From a virus (taxonomy: Duplodnaviria; Heunggongvirae; Uroviricota; Caudoviricetes): a stretch of 64,000 nt of DNA. Under the pieces are notes generated by a model. The model did not search any database. It saw only the letters and a program-made list of their open reading frames with translations, and was not told where the DNA came from. Below are positions 9,120-63,991 of this stretch, one piece after another. Positions within the stretch are counted from its first letter, which is position 1; each line of letters opens with the position of its first letter. The position numbers and the translations under genes are program-made. The DNA lies in IMG/VR virus record IMGVR_UViG_2721755676_000001. One strand, given 5' to 3'.

Positions 9120-9198
9120 CGCCAGTCGCATTATTTACTTTTGGTCGAAAGGTTTTTTGGCCAGTAATGAGAGCGACCGACAACAACAGGGAGAGAGC

Positions 9199-10007: not shown

Positions 10008-10008
10008 T

Positions 10009-10392
10009 GTGTTTATTGAAGCGTTTGCAAGTTTGATGCAGAAGGCAAAGATTGGCACGGTCGGGACTGACATTTTCTGTCACTACTTGCCTGCCAATGT
10101 GAAATCTGGCGTCCTGCTTATTAACCCAAATACCGGTATCAGCATCGATCATGAGCTACAGGGCTTTTACCACGAATCATTCACAATAATTGTGCGTGGT
10201 TCGTCAATTACTACGACGGTTGAGAAAGCCAATAAAATCATTGAGATGTTTCCAGTAGAGGAAACGGAATCTGGTGGTGTTTATTTTCGACTGGTACGAC
10301 CGATGGCGATGCCAATCATTTATCCCAAAAATGATGGAGCATTAATAGAAGCAGGCATTCCTGTTGAATTTGCTGGCTATTTATTGAATTAG
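10009..10392 (+). CDS. hypothetical protein (possible tail terminator), GTG start
   Basis: In-frame GTG at 10009 preceded by GAGAGG; longer track ORF from 9886 would overlap previous gene by 120 nt. Confidence 0.4.
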   Translation: MFIEAFASLMQKAKIGTVGTDIFCHYLPANVKSGVLLINPNTGISIDHELQGFYHESFTIIVRGSSITTTVEKANKIIEMFPVEETESGGVYFRLVRPMAMPIIYPKNDGALIEAGIPVEFAGYLLN

Positions 10393-10466
10393 GTTAATCG
10401 GTAGGTATATACTTACTGTTAGCGCAATGAATGCGTAGAATTAACGGAAAAAGGAGTTTTCCATCA

Positions 10467-11213: not shown

Positions 11214-11228
11214 ATTGTGATAACCCAA

Positions 11229-11248
11229 GAGGCCCATGGATGGGCCTC
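11229..11248 (+). other. stem-loop GAGGCCC-ATGGAT-GGGCCTC after major tail gene (no T-run)
   Basis: Read directly. Confidence 0.3.
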
Positions 11249-11274
11249 TGTATGAGTTTAAAAGGATTTAAACC

Positions 11275-11592
11275 ATGACCAAATTACTCGATCTCGACTC
11301 CATTCTGCCGCCGAAAAAAAGCATCAAATTTGGTGGCAAAGAATATCCCATCGTTGAAATGACCGTCGGCCTCTTTGTTTCCATCAAGCAGATGGAAGGC
11401 AAAGATCTCATGAACATGACTCCTGTTGAGCAAGTGACAGCTTATGCAGATCTGGTTCGTAAGGTTATCCCTTCAGTACCTGACGAAGTTCTTGAAAAAC
11501 TGACTGTTCCGCAACTCCAGCAGATCTTCACCTTCGCTATGGAAGTGATTGATGAAGAAAACGAAAAAGCGGCTGGCGAAGGGGCAAAGTAA
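11275..11592 (+). CDS. tail assembly chaperone (lambda gpG-like)
   Basis: 105-aa acidic ORF between major tail and tape measure genes; AAGGA RBS. Confidence 0.6.
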   Translation: MTKLLDLDSILPPKKSIKFGGKEYPIVEMTVGLFVSIKQMEGKDLMNMTPVEQVTAYADLVRKVIPSVPDEVLEKLTVPQLQQIFTFAMEVIDEENEKAAGEGAK

Positions 11593-11672
11593 TTTCCCGC
11601 GATGAATCCGGGACAAGGACCGTCTCAATAGATCTCGGATTCTATTTCAGTCGTGTAGTTGCTCACTACGCC

Positions 11673-11942
11673 GTGTCGCCATTAGAGCTACTGAACGTTC
11701 CTCTCACGATGTTCTGGATGCTCAGTCGCAATATAGACCGTCTGCGTGCGGAAGAGGATGTCCGCAACTTACAAGTCGCTCGTGCGTCCCAGGCGGATGG
11801 CGAGGCTGTGAAGGCGTTCATGGAGGGTTTGCAACTCAGGATTGGAAGACCAGTCGTAACAGATAAAGTCTACGATCCAAGCCAGGATAAGGCAGACCCT
11901 GACGCCAAAGAGCAACTGATGCAAATATTTGGCAGAGGATGA
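11673..11942 (+). CDS. tail assembly chaperone frameshift extension (gpT-like; frame open from 11556)
   Basis: ORF in the -1 frame relative to the G-like gene; -1 frame is open from 11556 and overlaps the G gene's last 36 nt; ends just inside tape measure start. Confidence 0.5.
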   Translation: MSPLELLNVPLTMFWMLSRNIDRLRAEEDVRNLQVARASQADGEAVKAFMEGLQLRIGRPVVTDKVYDPSQDKADPDAKEQLMQIFGRG

Positions 11943-11949
11943 CAAGGGA

Positions 11950-19047: not shown

Positions 19048-22000
19048 TTGGACATGGAACAGTTCAAGAAGAAAAAATTACCGCTTCTTATTGCCGGTGC
19101 TGGTGGCAAGAAAAGTAAAAGCTCCAGCCGTACCCCGGTTGAAGCTGATGATACTGTCAATTCTCGTGCTATGGCAGCCATCCTCGACCTTCTTGGCGAG
19201 GGGGTTATCGGTGGCCTGGTAAATGGCGCAAAGTCGATCTTCATCGACGATTTACCGATCTTGAATGAAGATGGCTCTTCCAACTTCAGCGGTATTACAT
19301 GGGATTTTCGTGACGGCTCACAAGACCAGACGCCAATGGCTGGTTTTGATTTTGTTGAAACGCCTAAGTCCGTAAATATTCAGCTTAAAAAAACACACGA
19401 CGTTACGGTTTCAATCGATAACGATGAAGCTGATCGCGTTCGTGTCATCATGAAATTCCCCTCTTTACGTAGCGTTGATAAAAGCTCTGGCGATACAAAT
19501 GGCACTACGGTGAAGTACAAATTCCAGATCGCCAACGCAGACGCAACATTTTCTGATGTAGTGGCAGAAGGTGAGAAAAGCGTTGATATCACGCTAACGG
19601 CAAAGAAAACCGGCGTGTATTACCGTAGCTATGAGCTGAAACTGCCTAAGCCTGGTCGTGCATACAAGGTTAGGGTGATTCGTCTTACAGATGATAATAG
19701 TAGCCAGTACCTCTACAACGACACATGGGTTGATTCCATCGGTGAGATTGTCGACACGCCAATGAACTACCCTAACTCTGCTCTTGTTGGCTTGAAGGTC
19801 AATTCAGAGCAGTTTGGTAGCACAATGCCTTCCCGTTCGTATTTGGTGCGCGGTATCAAAATCCGAGTACCGTCAAACTACAACGAATACACCAATACTT
19901 ATGTCGGCGTATGGGACGGTACTTTTAAGCTGTTGTCTTCTTCAAACCCTGCGTGGATTCTCTACGATTTGCTTACCAATACTCGGTATGGTCTTGGGCA
20001 ATTTGTGTCGGAATCCATGATTGACCTCGGCCAGCTCTACCAGATTGGTCGATATTGTGACGAGGAGGTCGATGATGGCTTTGGGGGTAAAGAGAAACGT
20101 TTTGCAATCAATACGCAGATCACTAGCCGACAGGATGCATACCGATTAATTCAGGATATTGCCGGTGCATTCCGCGGCATGGTGTTTTGGGCTGGTGGCA
20201 TGGTTAACATCATGCAGGATAGCCCATCAGATCCGGTAATGATGTTTACCAACTCCAACGTCAAAGATGGACTGTTTACCTATAAAGGTTCTGCGCGTAA
20301 AGATCGCCCATCCGTTGCGCTCGTAACCTACAACAACAAGGAGGACGGTTATAAGCAAAATATCGAGTACGTTGAAGATCAGGACGCAATGCGCCGTTAT
20401 GGTGAGCGTAAAACAGAAGTCGTAGCATTTGGATGTACAAGCCGAGGCCAGGCTCACCGAGTTGGTTTGTGGCTTTTGTATACCGCCAGAATGGAGTCGG
20501 ATGTAATTACATTTACTGCCGGCTTAGACGCCTCATTTCTGATGCCTGGTGAAACCGTTCTGATTCAGAACAAATATCGTGCAGGTAAACGTAACTCCGG
20601 TCGAATTGTGGAGTTTACCAAAAACAGCATCACTCTCGATGCGCCTGTGTCGTTAGCTAAAAGCGGCAGCTTTATTCGGATATTGAATCAGGAAGGCAAA
20701 ATCGTTGAACGCGATGTTCTTGAAACTGGCGAAAACATAACAAAGGTTACGTTTTCAAAAGCCCTGTCGTCAGCGGAAACGCCTGTTTTGAACGGTGTCT
20801 GGACAATTACAGAACCAGATCTCGAACCTATGCGCGTTCGCATCGTTAACATCGCACAGGGGGAAACGCCGGGTAGCTTTGACATCACCGCTGTTGAGAA
20901 CAATCCGTCTAAATATGAGGCAATCGACAATGGTGCAACGCTGATCCCGCAGAATACGACGGTATTGGACCCAACTTACTCCAAGCCATCTAATCTGCAA
21001 ATCACTGAAGGGACTTATCTCTCAAGCCCGGGCAACCTGTCAGTAAAACTGACTGCAACATGGGAAGGGAAGTCTCCAGAGTATTGGATCAGTTGGCGAC
21101 GTTCTGATGAAAACAATGTATCGAACTGGCAATCGGCGCGTGTAACCGAAGAGCAATACGAAATCGTTAATGTCGCGGAGAATGGACGCTACGACTTCCA
21201 GCTGTATGCGGTTTCATTCAACGGTAAAAAAACAGAGATTATCAGTACCGTTTATCAGGTGTTGGGCACAATGACACCGCCTGATGCCCCAACGTCATTA
21301 ACGGCCGTTGGAGACTATCGTAATGTGATACTGAATTGGGTTAATCCAGATTCGGTAGACCTTGATCACATTAATGTTTACGCATCCCAGACCAACAATC
21401 TGGATACGGCGAAACTGATCGCAGAGTCTGCAAGCACCACCTTTACACATGCTGGTCTTGGGGATAGCGAAACGTGGTATTACTGGGTTCGAGCATCGAA
21501 CAAGCGAGGTATGTTAAGCCCTCCGAACTCAAACTTGGGTACAGAGGCGACAACTCGCGATGTACTGTCGTTCCTGGCTGGCAAAATTACATCTTCCGAG
21601 CTTGGTCAGGCTCTGCTTGAGGACATCAACAGCAAAGCCTCTCAAGAAGCAGTTGACGAGTTAAATGAGCATATCAACCAGAGCGTCGAATCTTTAGAGG
21701 GGGCGGTAAACGACGTTAAGGAAGATATAGCTGAATTAGATAAGCAGTTCAGCGATAACCTCGCGGATTTTGAAATAAAATTCAACGAGCGTAGCGATGC
21801 TTTGGAGAACGCACAAACCGAGCTTAAAGGTGAGGTTTCGGCAACGATTGACAAGGTCAATGAAGCGTTTGAAAAAATTGATGCTACTGATGCTGCAATT
21901 GTTGAAATCGAAAACACCGTATCTGAACACGATAAAGCTCTCGCTAATACAGTCGAGGCAATAAAGGCTGCAAGAGATGAAGCGGCGGCTCTTATTGCTA

Positions 22001-30698: not shown

Positions 30699-30846
30699 GA
30701 CGCAGGCTCCAGGCGTGCTATTCTGCGATGCTGCAAATCCTATCTATGTGAGTAGAGAGGATTTTATGACTGAGGAAACGGAGCGACAGTTGCTTATCCA
30801 CAATACGATAGGTGAAAGGCTGTGTGAGTGGGGGCACCTGAACTGA
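30619..30846 (+). CDS. o-spanin (Rz1-like lipoprotein), overlapped architecture
   Basis: Starts inside i-spanin in the +1 frame and extends beyond it; MKRLMKCGKKMPLVFIASCLINGC has signal peptide and lipobox-like NGC; start codon uncertain (30610/30619/30631). Confidence 0.45.
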   Translation: MKRLMKCGKKMPLVFIASCLINGCVIKTQAPGVLFCDAANPIYVSREDFMTEETERQLLIHNTIGERLCEWGHLN

Positions 30847-42298: not shown

Positions 42299-42525
42299 CC
42301 AATACAACGATAAGATCATTACGGTTAATCGTCGTTCATGTGCACAATGACTGGTCGAAAGGTAGTGATCTTACCGTTGTGGTGGATTCGCAGACTGATG
42401 CGATAGCTTTCTTGGATGTTAGGGAAATGCGGCCGCAAATCTTCCCTTTCGCGAGCGGTGATCGTCCGTAGTCCTAATTGGCTGCACCGTATGCCGGAGA
42501 TTCAGTACCGGCCACCACAACGGCC

Positions 42526-42609
42526 GGAGAGTAGGGAGCATGGTGCTCAAGCGGTCTTGAAAACCGTCCCATTGCGCAAGCGATGATGGTTCGATTCCAT
42601 TACTCTCCG
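42526..42609 (+). tRNA. tRNA-Ser (anticodon TGA), long variable arm
   Basis: Acceptor GGAGAGT/ACTCTCC, anticodon loop CTTGAAA, long variable arm, T-loop TTCGATT, discriminator G, CCA encoded. Confidence 0.7.
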
Positions 42610-42789
42610 CCAGACACAGCGTTGAGCGGTTTGGCCTTTTAATCACCCAGATTAAGACTCCGCTAACATAAACCAGACCGCTCAACGCTGTGATAGACAA
42701 TTACGGCAGACGTTCTTAACCATAGCTTGCTAACATCCTAGCAACACTTTTTTCAGCGCAAAATTCAAAGGGGCTTCGGCCCCTTTTTG

Positions 42790-43686
42790 TTAATGATTAT
42801 CTAGGTATGCTATTAACTCATTTTTAATGATAAGTGAATATTCTAAAATCTCACCTAGTAAATATTCTGCTTTTTTAAAATGCCAACCCATATAGCCTAA
42901 TTTTTCTGAAGGTCCTTCTAACAACATTATAATATCGCTGTCTTTCTCTTTGGCAATGTATTGTCTTATTTCTATCTCAAAATTATTTCTTGTCTTCCCA
43001 CTTATTGATGATTCATCCAAAACTTTAGTTATAAACTTTTCCGTGTCGATGAACTTTCCTGCATTATGCACAATTGTATGTCTTAGCAGCTCAATTAAAG
43101 TGATCTCGAAACGATAGTTTTTACCTATCTTGTTATTTATTTCTACGTCTCTAAAATTGGGTAACTTTCTTCTAAATACTTTCAGGATTTTTTTTGGTGC
43201 TTTATTATTTCTTTTTATCGCATTGTAGTAGGTTTCCATGTCTCCATTTTGTTCGATCTGAACATTTTTAAATTCACTAGGTTGCCAAAAATGGTCATGA
43301 ATACTCACTGTATGGGCATATATTTTCTTAATATAGTCTTCAAACAATTCATATGCTTCGGTTATAACCCATTGATACTGTTTATTTTTTAACACTTCAC
43401 ATAACTTTATCTTCTCTGAAAGATCTGTTCTAGTATGCCCAATTCCAAATGTTGAACCTGTATATGGATTTGAGCATGTATGGTTTGCTAACGTTGTCCC
43501 GCATGTTAATGGGAAAGTATTATTAGCATCTAGATTTTGTACGTTTTCAAGTGTATGCTTAAATCGCTTTATGTTGTCTTTCGTTGTAACATTTATATGA
43601 CCTAACAAGTCACAACGTAAAATTATTTCATTTCTTAAATCAGTGAATATTTTTTCGACAAAAGAACCTGATGGGTTTTCAATCAT
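42790..43686 (-). CDS. hypothetical AT-rich protein with HEPN-like R-x4-H motif (candidate abortive-infection/defence protein)
   Basis: 298-aa minus-strand ORF, Lys/Asn/Ile-rich, AGAGG RBS; motif RHTIVH; directly flanks tRNA cluster. Confidence 0.5.
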   Translation of the reverse strand: MIENPSGSFVEKIFTDLRNEIILRCDLLGHINVTTKDNIKRFKHTLENVQNLDANNTFPLTCGTTLANHTCSNPYTGSTFGIGHTRTDLSEKIKLCEVLKNKQYQWVITEAYELFEDYIKKIYAHTVSIHDHFWQPSEFKNVQIEQNGDMETYYNAIKRNNKAPKKILKVFRRKLPNFRDVEINNKIGKNYRFEITLIELLRHTIVHNAGKFIDTEKFITKVLDESSISGKTRNNFEIEIRQYIAKEKDSDIIMLLEGPSEKLGYMGWHFKKAEYLLGEILEYSLIIKNELIAYLDNH

Positions 43687-43861
43687 CTAAACCTCTACGA
43701 AAATCTTACCTATAAGACAGTCCTTAATGTAATCTGTTTTCTCCACTACTTCAAATTACCTCACAATCTATTGATAGGTGACTACCTACTTACATACAAA
43801 GTTGATTTATAGTATAGTCCCTCTGTTGCGTATTAGTATTTTAAAAGGCATCTGTTAAGTT

Positions 43862-44107
43862 ATGACGATCACTATCTACGGACGAGATAACTGCTCATAC
43901 TGCAAACGTGCGGTCGAGCTGGCGAAGCAACTAAAGGGACATGGCTACGGTGATTATAAGTACATCGACATCACCACTGCCGGTATCGATAAGGAAAAAC
44001 TTAGCGAAATTGTTGGAAAACCGGTAGAGACTATCCCCCAGGTGCTGATCGATGGCCAGCCGATTGGCGGATACACAGAGATGGCATCTTTCGTAAGTTT
44101 CTTATAA
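43862..44107 (+). CDS. glutaredoxin (NrdH/Grx-like)
   Basis: 81 aa with CSYC active site near N-terminus and glutaredoxin-like C-terminal GG motif. Confidence 0.8.
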   Translation: MTITIYGRDNCSYCKRAVELAKQLKGHGYGDYKYIDITTAGIDKEKLSEIVGKPVETIPQVLIDGQPIGGYTEMASFVSFL

Positions 44108-44144
44108 GTAAAGGCCACATCTTTGTATATATAGTACATATAAC

Positions 44145-44170
44145 AAAAAAGGCCCATGTGGGCCTTTTTC
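44145..44170. terminator. bidirectional intrinsic terminator (AAAAAA-GGCCC-ATGT-GGGCC-TTTTT)
   Basis: GC stem flanked by A-run and T-run between convergent genes. Confidence 0.65.
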
Positions 44171-44198
44171 ATAACTTCTAGCTAATCACTACAGAGGC

Positions 44199-44335
44199 TT
44201 AAAGACCACTTCACCCTTGCGTTCAGCTTCAGCTTTAGCAGTCATGAATCGTTTGATCATTTCGACTTTGCTAGCATGGATAGTTTTAAAATCAATCTTC
44301 CCTTTGTTTTGGGTAGTGTTGTGTTCGTATCGCAT
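44199..44335 (-). CDS. hypothetical small protein (45 aa; not in ORF track)
   Basis: Minus-strand ORF ATG 44335 to TAA 44199, overlapping the 3' end of the upstream minus-strand gene by 44 nt. Confidence 0.25.
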
Positions 44336-44846
44336 AGGAAGCTCCGTCATTTAAATAAGTTAGGCCACGCTCTTGTGTAAATCTCTTCACATATCTCTTG
44401 TATGTGGCCATCAGTTCTTCGCGTTCTGCCGCAAAGAATAAAATCTGTATGCCTTCATTGTCGGCAACTTTGAGCATTAAGTCAACTAAAGTACCGTAAA
44501 GGTATTGAAGTTCACCTAAAGTAAGATTAAAAGACCCTTCGGGTTTGGCAAATACGTTAATTGGCTCTTCCGCTCCAAGAGCAGCATTCTGGAGCTGTTC
44601 TTGCTGCCTGTCAAGTTGAATCATGTCCACAAAACTAACGACAGATACACACAACCCATAAACATCAGCACCTAACATATTATGCATAGTTTCTGCGGCA
44701 ACAGGATCTAAAGAAGGAGGGCAAAAGACTAAACGGTATCTAGCCTTACGAGCTTCATTGCCAGAGAAAACAAAGTCTATATCTAAATATGACAGATCAC
44801 CCGGCAATGAAGCCAAACCAGGTGTAACCAACTTATGCAAGTGCAT
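44292..44846 (-). CDS. hypothetical protein
   Basis: 184-aa minus-strand ORF divergent from the recombinase gene. Confidence 0.5.
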   Translation of the reverse strand: MHLHKLVTPGLASLPGDLSYLDIDFVFSGNEARKARYRLVFCPPSLDPVAAETMHNMLGADVYGLCVSVVSFVDMIQLDRQQEQLQNAALGAEEPINVFAKPEGSFNLTLGELQYLYGTLVDLMLKVADNEGIQILFFAAEREELMATYKRYVKRFTQERGLTYLNDGASYAIRTQHYPKQRED

Positions 44847-44985
44847 CTGTCTCGAATCCCTCTTTATTAGTATAAGTTGTCTTATTGTACCCTACCAAAC
44901 GTTTATATGCATTGTTATGTATTATTTTGATTTTCAATATTACCTCCTAGAACGAAGGGTAGATTTCAAAAAACGCATCCTTAAT

Positions 44986-50601: not shown

Positions 50602-50805
50602 GTGCGTAAAGGATGTTTCGGCTCTCTTATCGCTGCTTCTGAAACTGGTAAGGCTTGTCTGGTGTGTCCAGACAAGCCCGATTGTCACCAATCAGCAAAA
50701 GAAGTTGCGATTTCGATGCATGGGAAGTTCGTAGGCTTCCCCAATGACAAAATCAAAAAAACCAGAAAGGTAAAAACACATGAAGGCACTGATGGTTCGA
50801 ACTGA
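50602..50805 (+). CDS. hypothetical small Cys-rich protein
   Basis: 67-aa ORF with C-x13-C-x2-C-x5-C pattern; overlaps polymerase start. Confidence 0.35.
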   Translation: MRKGCFGSLIAASETGKACLVCPDKPDCHQSAKEVAISMHGKFVGFPNDKIKKTRKVKTHEGTDGSN

Positions 50806-53800
50806 CTTCTCACTTGGGGAGTCGGCTCTAAAAGCAGAAAACGCGGTGAAGATTGCCAGAGAAGCTGGCTACACCGCTGTAATTTCAGCAGATAGCATGA
50901 ATATTGCGAGCGTTATTCCACTACAACGTGCCGCTGGTGACGACATGGCGGTTATTTGTGGTGTGAAACTAAACATTGTTGATGATCCCACATACGAGCA
51001 CCGGGCTAAACTTGCTAAAGAATCTATGAGATGTATGGAATCATTAGAGCGAGGACGTAACTACTCGTTTACCGCTCTAATTAAAAATGAGAAAGGATAT
51101 CGCGACATCTGCGAACTAATGACGGCGGCCAACACACGAGAACAGTTCTACTTTGTACCGCGTCTCTCGCTCGAACAGTTGGTTTCTACATATGCCAAAG
51201 GCAACATCATCCTGCTTACTTCCGACATCGGTAGCGTGTTCCAACGCAACGATTTTGCAAAAATCATAAGCACACTGATTACAGCGGGTGGAAAAGACAA
51301 CTTCTATAGTGTGGTTTATCCGCACCCTACCCCATTCTACGACCAGATTAACGTCCGGGCGATGAAAGTCGCCAGCGCATTGAAAATAGAGCCAGTGGCG
51401 TTCTATCCCGCTTATTACGAATCGATCGACGATGCAGACATTAAAGACATTGCGCACATGGTTACGAACAACATCAAAATCGACCAGCCGCATCGTCTGC
51501 GTATCCCCCACCAGCGAGATAACGCCGTCAATGGTCGCCGCCATCTCCTTGAGGCGCTTAAAGCCTTCTCCGTTCGCATGGATGTGCCGGTAACAGCTGC
51601 AATGGCCTCAACAACGCAGGATACCATTATCGATGCCTGCACATGGCGCTGGCATGAATTGCCGCCAGCACTGCCAAAGATGGCAGACGACGAGCCTGCA
51701 ACGCTGATGAAACTGGCTGTTGCAGGGCTGCGTAAACGTCTTACCACAAAAGAGTTTGGCTACACACCACCTGCTTCTGAGAACAGGGTTTATGTTGAGC
51801 GGCTAAAGTACGAAATGGACACGCTGACTCGCCTGGGATTCTGTGGTTACTTCCTGATGGTGCGCGATCTGATGAATCATAGTTGTGAAACTGGCATTCC
51901 CGTTGGGCCTGGTCGTGGTTCCTCTGCCGGTTCTCTGGTGGCGTGGTGCATAGGCATAACCAACGTCGACCCAATCCGTCACGGTCTTCTGTTTGAGCGT
52001 TTCATCAACCCTGAGCGTCTCGACTTGCCGGATGCGGACTTGGACTTCAGCCAGGCACGTCGCCATGAGGTGATCGAGTATCTGAATGAACGCTACGGCG
52101 AAGATTACGTTGCAGGCATTCCGAACTTCACCTACCTGGGCGCAGCCTCTGCACTACGTGACACCGCTCGTATTTATGGTGTGGAGTCCGCAGATATGGC
52201 GGTATCAAAAGAGCTGAAGAACGTCGAGGATGATAGCCTTCCATTGGAAGAGCTGCGCGAACAACTGGCAAGTCTCGACAAATACGCAACAAAATATCCT
52301 GATGCATTCAATGCAGCCTGCAAGTTACAAAGTCTTATGCGTGGCTTTGGTAGACATGCGGCAGGGATGATCGTAGCAGGTGTTCCTCTGACAGAACGTA
52401 CACCGGTTGAACGCCGTGGTGACGCGCGTTGTATCGCATTTGACAAGCGTTACTGCGAGGCTATGGGCCTAATTAAACTGGACGTACTTGGTCTGGCAAC
52501 TCTCGATTTGCTCGATAGTGCAAAACGCTACATAAAAGAGAACACAGGTGAAGATATCAATCTTGATGCCATTTCTCTTGAAGATCGCAAGGTGCTGGAT
52601 GGTTTTGCTGCTGGGTACACTCAAGGTGTTTTCCAGCTTGAATCAGGCCCAATGCGCAAGCTGCTTAAAGATTTAGGTGGTGGAATTGAGCCAATGAGCT
52701 TTAAAACGGTTGTTGCTACGACTGCGCTCTTCCGGCCGGGGCCAATTCAGTCAGGCATGTTGGATGACTATGTTTCTGTAGCCAAAGGCTTTATGACGCC
52801 GGAATCATTACACCCCGTTCTTGATGAACTTACCGCAGAAACAAATGGCGTGATTCTCTATCAGGAACAGACGATGAACGCGACTCGATTGCTTGCTGGC
52901 TTCACAATGGCTGAAGCTGACGGCGTTCGTAAAGCGATCGGCAAAAAAGACATGGAAAAAATGAAGAGCATGGGCGAGAAGTTCATCGTTCAGGCTCAAG
53001 CTGGCTGGATAGACGTTGAGCTGGAAGATGGCACTACACAGCGCATTCACCGTGCGGAACATTTTAAATGCGAAGACGGAACTCTGAAAACTGTCGAAGA
53101 GGCACTTGAGTACGGCGCAAAACTACCTATAAACGCAGTACGCGTTACAGCGTCACATCCAGGGCTATCAGAGATGAAAGCGAAGGAGATCTGGACCGCA
53201 TTCGAAAAGAATGGTGCCTACCAGTTCAACAAATCACACTCTGTTGCTTACTCCTTAATCAGTTATCAATCTATGTGGTTGAAAACTCATTATCCCGCGG
53301 AGTTCTTCGCTGCTGCTCTCACTATTCTTGGCGAAGATAAACACCAGGGGCTGGTTAAAGATGCGCTGACCTATGGTATTCGCGTATTGCCACCAGACGT
53401 TAACGTGTCATCTAACCGAATCGAGATCCGCACGCTTGAAGATGGCAGCCAGGTGCTGTATGCGCCCTTCTCTGCTGTGAAAGGGTGTTCTGAGAATGGC
53501 TGCCAAGCCATCATGAGAGCGCGAGAAAAAGTTGGCGGCAAATTCGAGTCACTGGCGCAATTCGAAGAAGCTGTCGAGAAACGTGCCTGTAATAGTCGAG
53601 TGCGCGAATCGCTGCAAAAAGTAGGGGCGTTTGCATCCATCGAGCCAGGCAGTCTGCCAGCAACTGATCCAGAGCGCCTACGCGACCAGGCTGAATTGAT
53701 GGGAAACCTTGTCATAGATGCAGTTAAAGCCTCACGTCCGTTTGAGATGAACCCCAAACGTTCGGCTGAAATTAACGTACTCATGACGCGGATGGCGGCT

Positions 53801-54298
53801 GAAATGGGCTTAGGTGATGAACTAATCCGCCCCAGCATTGGTATTAAGCCGAAAATCATGATCATTCTGGACAATGCGAACGGCAATGATGCTCGAACCG
53901 GTTACTTTATGGAGAACGGATACGACGACTTTAAGGCCAAGCTATTGACGGCTGGAGATTTACGCATGGGCGATCTCTATGTCACAGGTGTTTGCAAGAA
54001 GGTTAAAGACAAAGAAAAAGACTACACCAAAGACGAGATCGGCCAGTTCACCGACTTTATGCGTGAAGAGATCAATCTGGTGCGTCCGACCTATGTGCTG
54101 ACGTGTGGCAGCCGGGCAACTTCATTGTTTAACAACAAAAACAAGCCATCCGATTTGGTCGGCAGGAAGGAGTATCTTCCAGACCTTGACGTTACTGTCT
54201 TTTACGGGTTTAACCCCAACATTCTTTACTTCAGACCTGAAGAGGGAGAACGACTAGAAGCGATATTAGCCGACGTAGCAGAAACCATTAAGACGTGA
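50780..54298 (+). CDS. DNA polymerase III alpha subunit-like (DnaE-type) replicative polymerase
   Basis: N-terminal PHP-like domain; block GYFLMVRDLMNHSCETGIPVGPGRGSSAGSLVAWCIGITNVDP...LLFERFINPER closely matches the conserved DnaE polymerase core. Confidence 0.9.
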   Translation: MKALMVRTDFSLGESALKAENAVKIAREAGYTAVISADSMNIASVIPLQRAAGDDMAVICGVKLNIVDDPTYEHRAKLAKESMRCMESLERGRNYSFTALIKNEKGYRDICELMTAANTREQFYFVPRLSLEQLVSTYAKGNIILLTSDIGSVFQRNDFAKIISTLITAGGKDNFYSVVYPHPTPFYDQINVRAMKVASALKIEPVAFYPAYYESIDDADIKDIAHMVTNNIKIDQPHRLRIPHQRDNAVNGRRHLLEALKAFSVRMDVPVTAAMASTTQDTIIDACTWRWHELPPALPKMADDEPATLMKLAVAGLRKRLTTKEFGYTPPASENRVYVERLKYEMDTLTRLGFCGYFLMVRDLMNHSCETGIPVGPGRGSSAGSLVAWCIGITNVDPIRHGLLFERFINPERLDLPDADLDFSQARRHEVIEYLNERYGEDYVAGIPNFTYLGAASALRDTARIYGVESADMAVSKELKNVEDDSLPLEELREQLASLDKYATKYPDAFNAACKLQSLMRGFGRHAAGMIVAGVPLTERTPVERRGDARCIAFDKRYCEAMGLIKLDVLGLATLDLLDSAKRYIKENTGEDINLDAISLEDRKVLDGFAAGYTQGVFQLESGPMRKLLKDLGGGIEPMSFKTVVATTALFRPGPIQSGMLDDYVSVAKGFMTPESLHPVLDELTAETNGVILYQEQTMNATRLLAGFTMAEADGVRKAIGKKDMEKMKSMGEKFIVQAQAGWIDVELEDGTTQRIHRAEHFKCEDGTLKTVEEALEYGAKLPINAVRVTASHPGLSEMKAKEIWTAFEKNGAYQFNKSHSVAYSLISYQSMWLKTHYPAEFFAAALTILGEDKHQGLVKDALTYGIRVLPPDVNVSSNRIEIRTLEDGSQVLYAPFSAVKGCSENGCQAIMRAREKVGGKFESLAQFEEAVEKRACNSRVRESLQKVGAFASIEPGSLPATDPERLRDQAELMGNLVIDAVKASRPFEMNPKRSAEINVLMTRMAAEMGLGDELIRPSIGIKPKIMIILDNANGNDARTGYFMENGYDDFKAKLLTAGDLRMGDLYVTGVCKKVKDKEKDYTKDEIGQFTDFMREEINLVRPTYVLTCGSRATSLFNNKNKPSDLVGRKEYLPDLDVTVFYGFNPNILYFRPEEGERLEAILADVAETIKT

Positions 54299-57274: not shown

Positions 57275-58348
57275 ATGGCAAAAGGAAAATCCGCACTGGC
57301 ACTTGCTCTGAAAAAGAAAATCGGTAGCAACGACGAAATTCAGAAAGTAACTCATTGGATTGATACAGGCTTTCCACCGTTAAACAAAGCTATTTCTGGT
57401 CGTTACGATGGCGGCTTCCCATGTGGTCGTATCGTCGAAGTATTCGGTCCTCCAAGTGCAGGGAAAACGTTCCTTGCAACAGCAGCGATGATCTCCGCTC
57501 AAAAACAAGATGGTCTGGCGGTATTCCTCGATCATGAAAACAGTTTTGACGTTGGCCTGGCTGTAGCCAATGGCCTGAACGCAGATGAGGATGACGGTCA
57601 GTGGGTCTACAAACAGCCGGATACCTTCGAAGACTCCGTAGAGCTGATCGGCACAATCCTCAAGCTGGTGCGCGACGAAGAGCTTATTCCGGAAACAGCC
57701 CCTATCTGCATCGTAGCCGACTCTCTGGCGTCGATGGTTCCGAACTCGAAGGCTGAGAAGTTCGACAAGATGGCAGAAGGCACTGCGAAGGACAAAGATC
57801 AGCTGAACATGAACGACAACACGGCGCTGGCGCGCGCGACAAGTGCGAACTTCCCTACTCTGGCGCTTTGGGCGCGTAAGTACAACGCGTGCATCATCTT
57901 CTTGAACCAGGTGCGTACCAAAATTGGTGTGATGTTTGGCGATCCGACTACGTCTCCGGGTGGCGACTCTCCGAAGTTCTACGCGTCGGTGCGCATCCGT
58001 CTGGGTGCATCCGTCATGAAGGATGGCAAAGAGAAGATCGGACAGGACGTTGGCGCCGAGTGCATTAAAAACAAAGTCGCGCCTCCGTTTGGCAAATGCT
58101 CATGGAAATTCTACTTCGACCCGACTCGCGGGCTGGACGTCGTCGAGTCTCTGGTTGAATACATGCTGGAGGAAGGATACCTGCCCAAGAGCGCCAGCGG
58201 GCGTGTGGAAATTGGCGAGAAGAAATACACCAAATCACAGATCGTCGAGATGTACCGGGAGAAGCCATTAGCTGAAATCATTGCTGCGTTACAGGCAATA
58301 GATGACAGGCGCGAGAAGACATCACCGACAGATGAATTAGAAGATTAA
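57275..58348 (+). CDS. RecA-family recombinase (RecA/UvsX-like)
   Basis: Walker A GPPSAGKT, Walker B ICIVADSLAS, RecA-like FLNQVR block; AAAAGGAG RBS. Confidence 0.85.
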   Translation: MAKGKSALALALKKKIGSNDEIQKVTHWIDTGFPPLNKAISGRYDGGFPCGRIVEVFGPPSAGKTFLATAAMISAQKQDGLAVFLDHENSFDVGLAVANGLNADEDDGQWVYKQPDTFEDSVELIGTILKLVRDEELIPETAPICIVADSLASMVPNSKAEKFDKMAEGTAKDKDQLNMNDNTALARATSANFPTLALWARKYNACIIFLNQVRTKIGVMFGDPTTSPGGDSPKFYASVRIRLGASVMKDGKEKIGQDVGAECIKNKVAPPFGKCSWKFYFDPTRGLDVVESLVEYMLEEGYLPKSASGRVEIGEKKYTKSQIVEMYREKPLAEIIAALQAIDDRREKTSPTDELED

Positions 58349-58353
58349 TTTTC

Positions 58354-58378
58354 AGGCGTCCGAATGGACGCCTTTATA
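58354..58378 (+). terminator. putative terminator (AGGCGTCC-GAAT-GGACGCCT + TTATATCTT)
   Basis: 8-bp stem, weak U-tract. Confidence 0.5.
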
Positions 58379-58438
58379 TCTTGAAAATATATAAGCACTT
58401 ACTTTTCATCTACATACAATAGCCACATAGGAAAACAC

Positions 58439-58639
58439 ATGATCAAACTCTATCTGATGGCAGTGGCTACAGGTATATCTGTAGTTTTCATCTACTGTTT
58501 GCTGGTTCCGTCGCTGATCTCGGCTAAAAGCGATATTGCCGTAATGCTTGGAATCATTGTTGCTTTTGGCGCTCCTGTTATCGGCTTTAATGTTGGTCGT
58601 AACTTTCTGAAGTCACTAATTAATTCGAAGGGGAAGTAA
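58439..58639 (+). CDS. small two-TM membrane protein
   Basis: 66 aa with two hydrophobic segments; AGGAAAA RBS. Confidence 0.45.
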   Translation: MIKLYLMAVATGISVVFIYCLLVPSLISAKSDIAVMLGIIVAFGAPVIGFNVGRNFLKSLINSKGK

Positions 58640-58642
58640 GTA

Positions 58643-58834
58643 ATGAAGAAAGGTTTACTGGCAGTGATCGTGGCTGCTGTTTGCACAATGGGTCTTACAG
58701 GCTGCGATCGTGTTGAGCCTGGGTACGTTGGCATCAAAGTAAACAAATTGGGTGAAGACAAAGGTATCGGTGAAGTTGTCGGCGTTGGCCGTCAGTGGAC
58801 TGGTCTGAATACCGAGCTGTACACCTCTCTTTAA
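58643..58834 (+). CDS. small lipoprotein (short or truncated)
   Basis: Signal peptide with lipobox LTGC; only 63 aa; GGGGAAG RBS. Confidence 0.45.
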   Translation: MKKGLLAVIVAAVCTMGLTGCDRVEPGYVGIKVNKLGEDKGIGEVVGVGRQWTGLNTELYTSL

Positions 58835-58847
58835 GTCATCTTAAATG

Positions 58848-58895
58848 ACTCTGAGGTGTCTGTTAAACCTGTGGCGATTCAGTCTATTAAACCTG
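58848..58895. repeat. tandem direct repeat, 2 x 24 bp (GTCTGTTAAACCTGTGGCGATTCA / GTCTATTAAACCTGTGGCGATTCA)
   Basis: Read directly; one mismatch between units. Confidence 0.85.
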
Positions 58896-59066
58896 TGGCG
58901 ATTCACTTTATGGTGTCATAAACTTAAATCTAGCGCCGGGTAGAACAAGTTAATCGAACGATGTAGCGGCCATTTAGGCGTTACAGAAAGAACAGAATTT
59001 TAAATTTATAGTGAAGCCGTTGCAGCAACTTTGTGGGGTGCAACCAACACTGAACAGGAAAAGAAA

Positions 59067-61496
59067 ATGGATCATAGTGTACATAACAAGCTCATCTCAT
59101 TTATATGGAACATTGCCGACGACTGTTTACGTGATGTGTACGTTCGCGGTAAGTACCGCGATGTGATTTTACCTATGGTGGTATTACGACGTTTAGATAC
59201 GTTACTTGAACCCACCAAAGAAGCCGTGCTTGAAGAGGTCAAGTTCCAAAAAGAAGAGATGCAAGCCACGGAGCTTGATGATGAACCATTGAAGGCGGCT
59301 AGTGGTTATGTTTTTTACAATACATCTAAATGGACCCTGAAATCCCTGTTCAACACCGCAACGAATAACCAACAGATATTACTCGCCAACTTTGAAGAGT
59401 ACCTGCTTGGCTTTAGCGATAATGTTAAAGAAATCATTGAATGCTTTAACCTCAAGTCGCAAATTCGTCACATGGCCTCAAAGCAAGTCCTTCTTGATGT
59501 CGTCGAAAAGTTTGTTTCCCCTTACATCAACTTAACTCATGAAACGATCGAAGACCCAGATGGCAACAAGATGCCAGCCCTTACTAACCTGGGTATGGGG
59601 TACGTGTTCGAAGAGTTGATCCGTAAGTTCAACGAGGAGAATAACGAAGAAGCCGGTGAGCACTTTACACCTAGGGAAGTGATTGAGCTGATGACACACT
59701 TGGTTTTTGACCCAGTGAAAGAGCAGCTACCATTGACCATGACCGTTTACGACCCTGCGTGTGGTAGCGGTGGTATGCTCACTGAATCTCAAAACTTCAT
59801 TGAAGAGAAATACCCGAACGACAGCCGAGATATTTACCTTTACGGCAAAGAGATCAATGACGAGACCTACGCGATTTGTAAATCGGACATGATGATCAAA
59901 GGTAACAACCCTGAGAACATCAAGGTAGGCTCAACCTTGTCTACCGACGAGTTTGCGGCTTCTCGCTTTGACTTTATGTTGTCTAACCCGCCATACGGTA
60001 AGAGTTGGGCGTCTGAACAGAAGTACATTAAAGACGGCAGCGATGTGATTGACCCGCGTTTTAAGGTTAGCCTGAAAGACTATTGGGGAAATCTCGAAGT
60101 GGTGGATGCCACGCCACGTTCGAGTGATGGCCAGCTGCTTTTCTTAATGGAGATGGTCAACAAGATGAAAGATCCGAGCGTAAGTCCATTAGGCAGCCGG
60201 ATTGCCTCTGTTCATAACGGCTCATCGCTCTTTACCGGTGATGCGGGCGGTGGCGAAAGTAATATTCGTCGCTTCATCATTGAAAACGACATGCTAGATG
60301 CCATCGTTCAGTTACCTAATAACCTGTTCTATAACACTGGCATTACCACTTACATTTGGGTGTTGAACAACAATAAACCTGAGGCGCGTAAAGGTAAGGT
60401 GCAATTAATTGATGCCAGCTTGCTCTACCGTAAGTTGCGCAAGAACTTAGGTAACAAAAACTGCGAATTTGCGCCTGAGCACATCACGGAAATTACCGAT
60501 ACTTACCTCGCGTGTAAGGATGTTGAAAGAGCACTGGATGCAAACAATGATCCTGTTGGCATCGCCAGTAAGGTATTCAGCAATGACGATTTTGGCTACT
60601 ACAAAGTCACTATCGAGCGCCCAGATCGCCGCAAAGCCAAGTTTACTCAAGATGCCATAGCCCCACTGCGTTTTGATAAGCAACTTAGTGAAGTGATGGA
60701 GTACGTGTACGCAGAGCACGGCGAACGTGTTTACGAAAAAACTGGCTACGGGTCAGATCAGAAAAAGAGCTTCTTAAAATCCATCGAGAAAGACATTCTT
60801 TCTTGGTGTGAAGATAACGACATCAGTCTCAATGCTAAGGCTAAGGCCAAACTGCTTGATGTGAAACACTGGCTGGCGCTAAAAGCATTGCTTGAAACTG
60901 CACAAACGCTGATGGCTGACATCGGTAGCATTGAATTTGATGACTTCAATAGCTTTAAAACCCAAGTTGATAAATCGCTAAAAGCCCATGCTATTAAGCT
61001 TTCAGCACCTGAGAAAAATGCCATTCTTCACGCGGTGAGCTGGTATGACGAAACCGCCAAGAAAGTGGTTAAAAAGGTAGTTAAATTAACGGGTGATAAA
61101 TTAAACGACCTGCTGGAGCGCTATGAGTGTGAAGTCGCTGACTTGCCAGATTTTGGTTATTACCCCGTTCCTTCAGCAGAAGGCGGTAAAAAAGGCGAGT
61201 ATATCACTTACGAGACCAATTCAGACCTGCGAGATACAGAATCTGTTCCATTAAAGCAAAGCATTTACCAGTACTTCCTAGATGAAGTGAAGCCTCATGT
61301 CGATGAAGCATGGATAAACCTAGATACGGTAAAAATTGGCTATGAAATCAGCTTCAATAAGTATTTCTACCGTCATAAACCGCTGCGTAGTTTAGAAGAG
61401 GTTGCAACCGACATCATCAACCTAGAACAAAAAGCCGAAGGTCTCATTGCGCAGATATTGGGTGTTAAAGTGGCGGAAGCTCAGGGAGAAGCGTAA
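59067..61496 (+). CDS. hsdM: Type I restriction-modification system methyltransferase subunit (HsdM), long form
   Basis: N6-adenine methyltransferase motif IV NPPYG (MLSNPPYGKSW) and SAM-binding region DPACGSGGML; followed by HsdS; ATG 59067 with AGGAAAAG RBS. Confidence 0.85.
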   Translation: MDHSVHNKLISFIWNIADDCLRDVYVRGKYRDVILPMVVLRRLDTLLEPTKEAVLEEVKFQKEEMQATELDDEPLKAASGYVFYNTSKWTLKSLFNTATNNQQILLANFEEYLLGFSDNVKEIIECFNLKSQIRHMASKQVLLDVVEKFVSPYINLTHETIEDPDGNKMPALTNLGMGYVFEELIRKFNEENNEEAGEHFTPREVIELMTHLVFDPVKEQLPLTMTVYDPACGSGGMLTESQNFIEEKYPNDSRDIYLYGKEINDETYAICKSDMMIKGNNPENIKVGSTLSTDEFAASRFDFMLSNPPYGKSWASEQKYIKDGSDVIDPRFKVSLKDYWGNLEVVDATPRSSDGQLLFLMEMVNKMKDPSVSPLGSRIASVHNGSSLFTGDAGGGESNIRRFIIENDMLDAIVQLPNNLFYNTGITTYIWVLNNNKPEARKGKVQLIDASLLYRKLRKNLGNKNCEFAPEHITEITDTYLACKDVERALDANNDPVGIASKVFSNDDFGYYKVTIERPDRRKAKFTQDAIAPLRFDKQLSEVMEYVYAEHGERVYEKTGYGSDQKKSFLKSIEKDILSWCEDNDISLNAKAKAKLLDVKHWLALKALLETAQTLMADIGSIEFDDFNSFKTQVDKSLKAHAIKLSAPEKNAILHAVSWYDETAKKVVKKVVKLTGDKLNDLLERYECEVADLPDFGYYPVPSAEGGKKGEYITYETNSDLRDTESVPLKQSIYQYFLDEVKPHVDEAWINLDTVKIGYEISFNKYFYRHKPLRSLEEVATDIINLEQKAEGLIAQILGVKVAEAQGEA

Positions 61497-62818
61497 TGGA
61501 GCGTTTAGCATTGATGCCGAAATATGAGGATTATGTAGATTCTGGAGTTGAATGGTTAGGGGATTTACCGAGCCATTGGGACGCAGTAAAAATGAAGTTT
61601 CTTTTCAAAGATACGTCGATGAAAAACAAGCCTAACGAAACTTTATTATCTGTTACACAAAGTCAAGGTGTTGTTCCCAGAGAGTGGGTAGAAAACAGAA
61701 TGGTTATGCCATCTGGCAATCTAGAAAGCTTCAAGTTCATTGCAAAAGGTGACTTTGCTATAAGCCTTCGTTCCTTTGAAGGTGGTTTGGAGTATTGTCA
61801 TCATGATGGAATCATAAGCCCTGCTTATACGGTGTTAAAAACTAAGAAAGATTATCTACTTGCAGGATATTACAAATATTTGTTTAAAAGTCAGACTTTT
61901 ATTTCAGAGTTACAAACATCGATTGTAGGGATTCGTGAAGGAAAAAACATCAGTTATGAGGAGTTGCAATATTCACTTCTTCCTATTCCGGCTGAAGAAG
62001 AACAAACCCGTATCGCCAACTTCCTCGACAAGAAAACCGCTCTAATCGACGAAGCGATTTCGATCAAAGAGCAGCAAATTAGCCTGCTGAAAGAGCGTAA
62101 GCAGATCATCATCCAACAGGCGGTGACCCAAGGGCTTGATCCCAATGTGCCAATGAAAGACTCCGGTGTGGATTGGATTGGTAAGATTCCAGCGCATTGG
62201 GACGTTAAGAGGTTAAAATATCTTGGTAAATCGATCATTGGGTTAACTTATTCGCCAAATGATTTAAGTGATGAAAAAGGCGGAACTCTAGTTGCGCGAT
62301 CATCAAACTTATACGAAGGGAAGTTTAAGTATGGTGAAAAGGAAAATGTTTATATCAATTGCTTTATTCCTGAGCACTTAAAGCTTAAAAAAGGTGATAT
62401 TTTGATATGCTCCAGGAATGGAAGTCGAGACCTAATTGGCAAGTGTGCATTTGTATCTGACGCTGATGAGGGAAACAGCTTCGGGGCCTTTACTACGGTA
62501 TTCAGATCTAAACACAATGAGTATTTATTTTGCATTCTAAATAGTGATGTTTTCAAAATGTTATCAGGGACATTTCTTACATCAACAATTAATCAGCTTA
62601 CAGTGGGGAATCTTAATAGCATTTTTGTGCCTTTCCCCCCTTCTAAAAATGAACGAGATGGAATTATTACGTACATTAACAGATTAAATGGTGATGTTGA
62701 GCGAGCTATAGAGTATCAAAAAATAAAAATCGAAAAGCTTAAAGAATATAAAACCACCCTGATCAACAGCGCCGTGACAGGAAAAATCAAGATCACCCCA
62801 GAAATGGTTGAGCAATAG
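61496..62818 (+). CDS. hsdS: Type I restriction-modification system specificity subunit (HsdS)
   Basis: Two target-recognition-domain halves separated by conserved helical spacers (EEQTRIANFLDKKTALID and NERDGIITYINRLNGDVE); coupled to hsdM (TAATG). Confidence 0.85.
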   Translation: MERLALMPKYEDYVDSGVEWLGDLPSHWDAVKMKFLFKDTSMKNKPNETLLSVTQSQGVVPREWVENRMVMPSGNLESFKFIAKGDFAISLRSFEGGLEYCHHDGIISPAYTVLKTKKDYLLAGYYKYLFKSQTFISELQTSIVGIREGKNISYEELQYSLLPIPAEEEQTRIANFLDKKTALIDEAISIKEQQISLLKERKQIIIQQAVTQGLDPNVPMKDSGVDWIGKIPAHWDVKRLKYLGKSIIGLTYSPNDLSDEKGGTLVARSSNLYEGKFKYGEKENVYINCFIPEHLKLKKGDILICSRNGSRDLIGKCAFVSDADEGNSFGAFTTVFRSKHNEYLFCILNSDVFKMLSGTFLTSTINQLTVGNLNSIFVPFPPSKNERDGIITYINRLNGDVERAIEYQKIKIEKLKEYKTTLINSAVTGKIKITPEMVEQ

Positions 62819-62827
62819 GAAGCGAAT

Positions 62828-63991
62828 ATGTTCACGGTAAATCATCAGACCAACAGGATTAGTCCGGTTAAGACGAAGAGATTCAGTGAGTTGGGCTTTA
62901 CTGAGCGCAAAAATCTTCAGGAATGGTTGGCACACGAGCCTTCCGCACTGGGTGAAGAGCTGCTGATTATTCAAAAAGAGTTCGATGGCTTTGATGACAC
63001 CCGTGAACGCTTAGATTTACTGGCACTGGATAAAGATGGCAACTTGGTCATTATTGAAAACAAGCTGGACGACAGTGGCCGCGATGTGGTGTGGCAGGCG
63101 CTTAAATATGCCTCCTACTGCGCAAGTTTAACCAAAGCGCAAATCGTTGAAATTTACCAGCAGTACTTAGACCGCTATGAGCCTGTAACAGGAGAGGTTG
63201 ACTTGTTTAATACCCCTGCAAGTGCCTCTGCTAGAATATGTGAGTTTTTGGATGCGCCCGATCTCGATGAGTTAAAGCTCAACCTGGGTAACAGCCAGCG
63301 CATTATGTTAGTTGCGGCAAACTTTCGCAAAGAAGTGACCAGCACCGCGCTGTGGTTATTGGGTCAAGGCATTAGCATTGCCTGCTTCAAAATCACGCCT
63401 TATTCACTGGGTGAACAGCTACTGATTAATATTGACCAGATCATTCCAACGCCAGAAGCGAAAGAGTTGATGATCGGCATTAATGCCAAGGAAGCGGAAG
63501 AAAAAACCACCGAAGTGGTACTAAAAAACCGCCATACCGTGCGTCGCGAGTACTGGGAGCGTGCCTTAGAGGCGTTTCAGAAAAGCTCTTGCCAACTCTA
63601 TAACAACATTAGCCCAAGCAAAGATCATTGGTTATCAGCAGGCTCAGGGCTAAGTGGATGTCCGTATAACCTGATATTTCTGCAAAAAGAGCTTCGAGTA
63701 GAGCTTTGGATCAGCCGTGGGGTTACCGAAGAGAATAAATACCTTTTTGATTTGTTGAGTCAGTCCAAACAAGACATTGAGCATACTTTTGGTGCAGAAC
63801 TTGAGTGGATGAGGCTGGATGAGAAGAAATCTTGCCGTATCCAGTTTTCGACCAAAGCTGACGGGTTTAACAAAGAGACTTGGCCCCAAGCGGTTGCGTG
63901 GCACTTAGAGCAGATGACAAAGTTAGAAAAAGCCTTAAAAGGACCGCTGCAAAAAGCGGCTGAGGCAATGAAACAGAAGAATTTTGATTAA
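62828..63991 (+). CDS. hypothetical protein with PD-(D/E)xK nuclease-like N-terminal motif, embedded in R-M locus
   Basis: Motif LDLLALDKDGNLVIIENK resembles D...E-x-K restriction-endonuclease-fold signature; AGGAAG RBS; sits where accessory genes often lie between hsdS and hsdR. Confidence 0.45.
   Translation: MFTVNHQTNRISPVKTKRFSELGFTERKNLQEWLAHEPSALGEELLIIQKEFDGFDDTRERLDLLALDKDGNLVIIENKLDDSGRDVVWQALKYASYCASLTKAQIVEIYQQYLDRYEPVTGEVDLFNTPASASARICEFLDAPDLDELKLNLGNSQRIMLVAANFRKEVTSTALWLLGQGISIACFKITPYSLGEQLLINIDQIIPTPEAKELMIGINAKEAEEKTTEVVLKNRHTVRREYWERALEAFQKSSCQLYNNISPSKDHWLSAGSGLSGCPYNLIFLQKELRVELWISRGVTEENKYLFDLLSQSKQDIEHTFGAELEWMRLDEKKSCRIQFSTKADGFNKETWPQAVAWHLEQMTKLEKALKGPLQKAAEAMKQKNFD

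Follow-up and report, generated by a model that had tools for sequence, protein, structure and literature searches.

The 64,000 nucleotides analysed here (the whole stretch, hereafter the window) carry a phage-like region followed by the genes of a restriction-modification (R-M) system, and a tandem pair of 24-bp repeats lies between the two. This arrangement raises the question of whether the pair is a working site of the replicon or the scar of a mobile-element boundary. A preliminary description made from the sequence alone had placed both possibilities side by side, the working sites being iterons, a partition site or an attachment site. The evidence presented below makes it highly probable that the region is the left boundary of a captured R-M block and that the repeats are insertion sequence (IS) termini left there by successive IS events.

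The window belongs to the E. coli phage-plasmids of SSU5/pHCM2/Cyrano type. Its identity to members of this group exceeds 99%, as with pRHB17-C18_2 (L001), and the phages Cyrano and SSU5 match it at 85-91% identity up to 58822, the point at which DNA homology with Cyrano, SSU5 and pHCM2 stops. In Cyrano, RecA is followed by a membrane-protein gene of 201 nt, a 'stomatin-like' gene of 831 nt, hypothetical genes and finally RepA. In the window, a recA-like gene (57275-58348; Pfam RecA, 1e-42) is followed on the plus strand by an intrinsic-terminator-like backbone element (58354-58383), made of a hairpin at 58354-58373 with a stem of 8 bp (6 GC pairs) and a loop of 4 nt and of the T-rich tail TTATATCTTG. 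A terminator had been announced behind the recombinase operon, and so had two small membrane or lipoprotein genes, both of which are present. The first, taken from the list of open reading frames (58439-58639, plus strand), encodes a hydrophobic protein of 66 aa without a match in Pfam or NCBIfam. It belongs to the backbone as the partner directly upstream of an SPFH gene, and the same 201-nt gene is labelled 'membrane protein' in Cyrano (CYRAN_56) and in RefSeq plasmids. The second is a 63-aa frame at 58643-58834.

This 63-aa frame starts as the 5' remnant of an SPFH/Band-7 (stomatin-like) lipoprotein gene (58643-58821, plus strand) comprising codons 1-60, with a signal peptide and the lipobox LTGC. 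Three IS-derived codons follow SPFH codon 60 and the stop is reached at 58832-58834. The stub is identical at 57 of 60 positions to residues 1-60 of a 276-aa Cyrano protein, which is intact and matches Pfam Band_7 at 2.6e-30 over residues 23-209; the copy in the window encodes residues 1-60 only and lacks a complete Band_7 domain. Cyrano thus carries an 831-nt SPFH gene at the place of the 60-codon stub, which RefSeq flags as a pseudogene ('SPFH domain-containing protein, missing C-terminus'). The earlier suspicion that the lipoprotein may be a fragment is borne out by these first 60 of 276 codons. The 63-aa frame is a gene fragment that takes its last three codons and its stop from foreign DNA, and it should be annotated as a pseudogene fragment.

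The SPFH gene is cut at 58821/58823 and joined, with 1 bp of overlap, to the interior of an IS. The break at 58822 is an illegitimate junction and not an IS tip, so that the mechanism of entry is not readable from the left junction. A comparison of relatives for presence or absence of the R-M block, which the preliminary description had proposed, returned the picture of an indel: Cyrano, SSU5, pHCM2 and pMT1 have an intact SPFH gene and no R-M block.

The DNA to the right of this break can be traced to its source. Read from 58881 to 58822 on the minus strand, the window corresponds to nt 1-60 of a full-length IS of 1229 bp (IS_A; 3060 to 1832 in record L005), with 59 of 60 positions identical. 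This remnant holds the left inverted repeat (IRL) and the 5' leader of the element, has its outer tip at 58881 and ends 5 bp short of the orfA start codon (ATG). In L005, the stretch of about 60 nt lies directly upstream of the start codon of the transposase gene. The OrfA of IS_A matches Pfam HTH_Tnp_1 at 1.9e-19 and NCBIfam transpos_IS3 over its N-terminal part. RefSeq labels the L005 element 'IS3 family transposase, programmed frameshift', and public annotations of the 1229-bp IS say only 'IS3 family transposase'. Its IRL (TGAATCGCCACGGGTTTAACAGACAC) and right inverted repeat (IRR; TGAATCGCCACAGATAATCTAGACAC) are identical at 19 of 26 positions when compared by eye, and its tips are TG...CA. 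The element is widespread, since single IS_A ends were found at about 1,650 places in 1,194-1,228 of 5,426 E. coli genomes, in unrelated contexts and up to 16 times per genome. Moreover, the approximately 60 nt past the breakpoint also match many unrelated phages, plasmids and chromosomes. A promoter-like site was seen on the minus strand inside the IS_A remnant, from 58866 to 58838.

The repeats begin within this remnant. Over 57-61 kb, Tandem Repeats Finder reported a single array with a period of 24, 2.0 copies and 95% matches, and the units lie at 58858-58881 and 58882-58905, identical at 23 of 24 positions. The tandem 24-bp pair with one mismatch described earlier therefore exists, but it had been placed at 58848-58895 and its true site is 10 nt to the right. 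Copy 1 (GTCTGTTAAACCTGTGGCGATTCA; 58858-58881, minus strand) is the outermost 24 nt of the left inverted repeat of IS_A, its reverse complement being TGAATCGCCACAGGTTTAACAGAC. Copy 2 (GTCTATTAAACCTGTGGCGATTCA; 58882-58905, minus strand) is a lone 24-nt terminus, of the IRL kind, that comes from the same IS type and, compared by eye, has one mismatch to copy 1, two to the L005 IRL and five to the IRR. The junction reads GGCGATTCA|CTTTATGGTGTC. The 24-bp repeats are two terminal inverted repeats of one IS3-family type set head-to-tail, and copy 2 is a second IRL-type terminus with nothing beyond its 24 nt. Each of the IS remnants in the window retains a single end of its element. Among the options raised at the start, the scar of a mobile-element boundary is the one upheld by this match to an IS3-family terminal inverted repeat.

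A 19-nt core of the repeat has 2 matches in 64 kb against 0.04 expected by chance. The search for further copies that had been suggested was run, and no third copy of the unit occurs in the window at up to 4 mismatches. These counts bear on the idea that the repeats are a functional element of the backbone, be it iterons, a parS-like partition site or an attachment site, an idea that is extremely improbable. In form the pair does look like such a site, with two direct units of about 24 bp located in non-coding DNA on a plasmid-like replicon. However, the window holds just two copies, and the rep gene is about 10 kb off, beyond the R-M block, as read in the near-identical L001. Four relatives without the cassette, Cyrano, SSU5, pHCM2 and pMT1, have the backbone and its rep region in common with the window. 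In the flanking regions sampled, the unit is missing from the matches to all four and from the Cyrano locus, and native Providencia and Vibrio cassettes lack it as well. The unit also accompanies the R-M cassette on 37 E. coli chromosomes, and it is the tip of a multi-copy IS. Iterons and a partition site were rejected on the copy number, the distance to rep and the absence from these four relatives. An attachment site was rejected because the two block ends do not carry the same repeat, the right end being an IS911-like IRR without a matching repeat. All three options thus fall, since the unit is an IS3-family tip that is absent from cassette-free relatives and travels with the cassette.

Two further candidates were considered for the repeat. 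A Tn7-like or Mu-like end with tandem transposase-binding sites was suggested by the TGT... start and by the tandem units of about 22-24 bp, and was set aside because the unit matches an IS3-family tip; furthermore, the Vibrio cassette that stands beside tnsD/tnsE has no 24-bp unit. The unit also bears a weak resemblance to ERIC ends, and an ERIC/REP-type intergenic repeat was no longer considered after this terminus had been recognised on a full-length IS.

The outer tip of copy 2 marks the passage into the DNA of the cassette. When the sequence right of copy 2 was scanned against one genome per species, two Providencia genomes were found. These two genomes, Vibrio gigantis p1 and a plasmid of Shewanella aestuarii match the window only from 58904/58906 on, and both the Vibrio and the Shewanella plasmid have a WYL gene in their annotation. 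In the Providencia, Vibrio and Shewanella records, an intact WYL gene runs straight through the point that corresponds to 58905/58906. In the window, the last 15 codons and the stop of this WYL-domain regulator gene are left (58906-58953, plus strand; frame-0 translation LYGVINLNLAPGRTS before the stop). They match the C-terminus of a 307-aa Providencia ORF (Pfam WYL, 5.5e-14; PADLOC WYL) that is recognised in PADLOC by generic WYL models only, and the corresponding gene of V. gigantis p1 is annotated 'WYL domain-containing protein'. Because the relatives match the window only right of 58904/58906 and have an intact WYL gene there, the outer tip of copy 2 (58905/58906) is an original, true junction between an IS end and its target, where the IS insertion cost the WYL gene all but these 15 codons.

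Behind the WYL remnant comes the native WYL-hsdM intergenic leader of 113 bp (58954-59066, plus strand), which is 100% identical to that of Providencia sp. PAZ2 and nearly identical in V. gigantis p1, and which contains the palindrome GTTGCAGCAAC at 59019-59029. Identity between Providencia and the window is 97.7% over 1498 bp from 58904, a stretch that takes in the leader and ~1.3 kb at the 5' end of hsdM. The AT-rich spacer reported ahead of hsdM is found here, as 58906-59066 has a GC content of 40.4% and hsdM starts at 59067. In V. gigantis p1, the intact cassette WYL-hsdM-hsdS-DUF4268-hsdR directly follows Tn7-like tnsD/tnsE genes. The edge of the cassette is thus not where the preliminary description implied, but consists of three nested breakpoints at 58822, 58882 and 58906.

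The cargo itself is a type I R-M system, with HsdM and HsdS encoded in the window and HsdR known from the annotation of relatives. On the plus strand, hsdM encodes the methyltransferase subunit (59067-61496; Pfam HsdM_N and N6_Mtase; PADLOC MTase_I, 3.5e-268) and is followed by hsdS for the specificity subunit (61496-62818; Pfam Methylase_S; PADLOC Specificity_I, 4e-104). A DUF4268 gene (62828-63991; Pfam DUF4268, 1e-39; PADLOC candidate PDC-S11, 1.8e-182) is located between hsdS and hsdR. The latter lies past the window end and is annotated in the near-identical L001 and also in L004 and L011. The order hsdM-hsdS-DUF4268-hsdR is common to L001, L004 and Vibrio. The stretch 61562-62020 of the window, in hsdS, is unaligned to the otherwise near-identical L001.

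Base composition and codon usage had been proposed to set the R-M genes apart from the phage-like region. A GC-window analysis recovers part of the compositional shift, namely a modest drop from 46.9% in the backbone to 43.1% in the block, but the lower value lies within the range of 5-kb backbone windows (41.2-49.9%) and the local GC fall starts around 58200-58400, before the junction. The 'visibly different codon usage' of hsdM did not hold up: by their distance to the pooled backbone, hsdM, hsdS and the DUF4268 gene fall in the middle of the range spanned by 31 backbone genes. Of the backbone subsets matched in size to the pooled R-M genes, 13% are no closer to the backbone pool than the latter. 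The insert could not have been recognised as foreign by its composition alone. The sampled Providencia loci have 43% GC, which is compatible with a low-GC origin of the block.

The right end of the block was read in L001. Compared with Cyrano, a foreign block of about 8.9 kb, formed by hsdM-hsdS-DUF4268-hsdR and IS debris, replaces 1,058 bp of backbone in one lineage of SSU5-type E. coli phage-plasmids. Homology between L001 and Cyrano breaks off at 21823 and is found again from about 30740-30751, and the missing backbone comprises 650 bp at the 3' end of the SPFH gene, a spacer and the 5' part of the CYRAN_58 homologue. The hsdR stop codon is at L001 30031 and homology to chromosomal copies persists to about 30124, after which L001 enters the middle of an IS911-like orfB within the 13-bp microhomology GAGCTGGGGCTGG. 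The element, of which the 3' half of orfB remains, ends at its IRR tip at L001 30739, and the backbone resumes inside the CYRAN_58 homologue. Its assignment to IS911 is based on an identity of ~89-91% to curated K-12 IS911A fragments. The right end is a bona fide junction between an IS tip and the backbone. No further copy of the 24-bp unit was found in L001.

Among complete E. coli records, 56 have the 48-bp tandem junction, once each; 37 of them are chromosomes and 19 are plasmids. The junction occurs only with this hsdM leader, which is present in an equal number of records. Among 5,426 E. coli genomes, the head-to-tail pair of IS ends was seen only at this locus. In E. coli genomes and PLSDB plasmids, two classes of left boundary were met, SPFH::IS at 58822 in phage-plasmids and an IS911-like IRR at about 58836-58840 elsewhere, besides the native WYL contexts. 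The identical SPFH::IS junction is present in all the cassette-carrying phage-plasmid records listed (about 20), one of which has an additional upstream deletion. In the chromosomal copies listed, and in two other plasmids, an IS911-like IRR is inserted 42 nt inside the IS_A remnant. The chromosomal versions thus retain 42 nt of IS_A versus 60 nt in the phage-plasmid, and this shorter remnant means that they are not the direct donors. Finally, a phage-plasmid, pM160133_p3, has a single hybrid 24-bp unit. Two copies are the rule in every one of the 37 chromosomes and in almost every plasmid, so that the one-copy allele is derived and represents a secondary collapse by unequal exchange.

From the identity of the pieces, their breakpoints and the inheritance pattern read in these records, an order of events can be proposed. 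In a donor replicon, the 3' end of the WYL gene would have received one IS copy, and a second copy of the same IS would then have inserted within this one, oriented alike and at 24 nt from the tip. The block between IS copies, with the IS911-like element downstream of hsdR, may subsequently have entered the phage-plasmid by IS911-like activity or by recombination. Deletions would finally have taken most of the IS, about 1 kb of the left backbone and, on the right, the 5' half of the IS911-like element. Adjacent deletions are a common outcome of IS3-family elements (PMC11708052).

The second of these steps has a competitor in which a single IS insertion was followed by a local 24-bp duplication of its terminal repeat, through slippage or unequal exchange, without any second IS. 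This is possible, though clearly less probable than not. The two units differ by 1 nt only, and the hybrid unit of pM160133_p3 illustrates that unit number does change by unequal exchange at this very place. In addition, no remnant of the first IS interior is there to prove nesting: no form was found in which the interior of the first IS continues beyond the second, nor was a complete IS_A met upstream of the cassette in E. coli genomes or PLSDB plasmids. Against this, the tract is exactly 48 bp long and its right edge coincides with the junction of IS tip and target at 58905/58906, which is automatic under nesting; a random 24-bp duplication would be expected to hit this edge in about 1/24 of cases. 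Moreover, the edges of the unit (G..., with T before and C after) are devoid of slippage-type microhomology, and the two-copy state is shared almost throughout the chromosomal and plasmid copies, the one-copy allele being derived. A local duplication is less favoured than nested insertion, which we infer, because the tract ends exactly at the IS tip and because its edges lack microhomology.

Nested insertion can also be set against what is known of IS elements that target their own ends. IR-targeting by IS911 and IS30 is alike in that an IS end comes to lie beside an end of the same type, and end-targeting has been documented in the IS3 family (PMC9333248). It differs in that here the tip of one IRL meets a second IRL at its inner edge, with both IRLs pointing the same way. 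The classical IS911/IS30 IR-targeted insertion, which yields tip-to-tip IRL-IRR junctions unlike this pair (PMC9333248), was rejected. The direct IRL-IRL arrangement fits an insertion inside a resident IS, or a duplication, and not classical IR-targeting.

A further issue is whether the scar has acquired a role. The pair of IS ends, together with the loss of the WYL gene, might drive or deregulate hsdM transcription, or might attract IS insertions beside the cassette, but such a co-option is very unlikely. It draws on the native operon, whose WYL regulator gene is missing except for 15 codons, on reports that IS911 and IS30 insert beside their own ends (PMC9333248), on the chromosomal copies in which the IS911-like element sits 42 nt inside the same remnant, and on the stable inheritance of the arrangement in 56 records. 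Nevertheless, a neutral scar is expected to be stably inherited, and the loss of a unit in one lineage had no visible effect. A consensus scan of 58300-59120 returned no sigma-70 promoter on the plus strand, and the native 113-bp leader is unchanged, so that hsdM may keep its own signals. In a bolder form, for which the chance is slim, the IS-end pair and the WYL loss would not be neutral in that the R-M operon would be freed from native repression, and the pair might even act as a transposase-binding hotspot that draws in more IS insertions and shuffles the cassette between chromosome and phage-plasmid.

WYL-domain regulators of the BrxR/CapW type are located upstream of defence operons. The native operons considered here are alike, as a 307-aa WYL gene stands directly before hsdM with its conserved 113-bp leader in Providencia, Vibrio and Shewanella, and the window differs by its 15 remaining WYL codons. 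In parallel, R-M systems and IS-mediated gain and loss have been reported in the E. coli/Shigella clade of SSU5-supergroup phage-plasmids (bioRxiv 10.1101/2025.09.12.675607). The present case resembles these accessory defence modules by its SSU5/pHCM2/Cyrano-type backbone with type I R-M cargo, and adds the base-level anatomy of a cassette that has lost its own WYL gene and has taken the place of the SPFH gene's 3' part and of the 5' part of the next gene, the CYRAN_58 homologue. It is likewise similar to solo IS3-family terminal-repeat remnants beside plasmid or island cargo, with a TG...CA-tipped repeat of a multi-copy IS at the junction of backbone and cargo and with the nearby truncations and adjacent deletions typical of IS activity; it differs from them by two termini of the same kind placed head-to-tail without a spacer. 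IS remnants at cargo boundaries, adjacent deletions by IS and R-M systems on SSU5-supergroup phage-plasmids are already described. The scar is ordinary mobile DNA, and the head-to-tail pairing of IS ends is its only slightly unusual feature, adequately explained by nesting or duplication.

The main value of the analysis is that a repeat resembling an origin or an attachment site is shown to be IS debris, and that one capture of a defence system by an SSU5-type phage-plasmid becomes readable base by base. The conserved phage SPFH gene is naturally knocked out in at least about 20 sequenced plasmids, which indicates that this gene is dispensable for plasmid maintenance. Finally, these phage-plasmids carry a captured type I R-M operon without its WYL-domain regulator, and the effect of this loss on expression is testable.

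Inside hsdS, the specificity gene of the type I restriction-modification (R-M) cassette hsdM-hsdS-DUF4268-hsdR, a stretch of about 460 bp (window 61562-62020) gave no alignment to the near-identical E. coli phage-plasmid pRHB17-C18_2 (L001), identity elsewhere being about 99%. The same stretch differs in the chromosomal copy of the cassette as well. A swapped target-recognition domain, and with it a different R-M specificity, would fit these differences.

Ahead of hsdM, the native leader carries a palindrome of 11 bp, GTTGCAGCAAC, with another GCAAC motif after it (59019-59045), and this region is kept in Providencia and Vibrio. The palindrome may have served the lost WYL-domain regulator as an operator. 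The DUF4268 gene (62828-63991, 387 aa) lies between hsdS and hsdR in every cassette copy, in E. coli as in Vibrio, the place taken by PrrC in prr-type type I loci. Its protein matches the PADLOC phage-defence candidate PDC-S11 (1.8e-182) and, weakly, a NucS endonuclease model.

Variation is also found outside the cassette. The region 42400-44983 diverges from L001, being only about 77% identical over 42486-43997 and unaligned over 43997-44983, while the DNA on either side matches at 95-98% identity. The phage-plasmid has a second variable region here. The recA-like gene (57275-58348) is uninterrupted and encodes 357 aa. In the related phage Cyrano and in many related phage-plasmids, an insertion of about 1.26 kb is present inside this gene, at a point corresponding to approximately 57466 in the window. 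In Cyrano, recA and the insertion are annotated together as a single 2340-nt RecA coding sequence, and elsewhere the insertion is annotated separately as a "LAGLIDADG family homing endonuclease". These annotations suggest that the window carries at this point an empty homing site for an intein or intron. Positions 15171-16225 of L001 exceed the corresponding window region (52965-53225) by about 800 bp, and the additional DNA includes an annotated HNH endonuclease gene (L001 15398-16132). The insert appears to interrupt the region matching a 1172-aa open reading frame of the window (50780-54298), and the HNH gene would then be one more mobile endonuclease whose presence varies between phage-plasmids that are otherwise near-identical.

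In the E. coli DLI.6n chromosome (L004), the cassette sits amid a pile-up of mobile elements (8505-12006 and 20337-20700). Its upstream side holds a 5' fragment that is IS629-like by its ends, together with a group II intron and a 3' fragment of an IS911-like element. On the downstream side, IS30 interrupts an IS911-like 5' part, an IS911::IS30 arrangement that is also annotated in CP4-6 of K-12. In Vibrio gigantis p1 (L011, 5215-17635), Tn7-like tnsD and tnsE genes are directly followed by the intact WYL-hsdM-hsdS-DUF4268-hsdR cassette, and owing to this position the cassette may travel as Tn7-like cargo in marine hosts.
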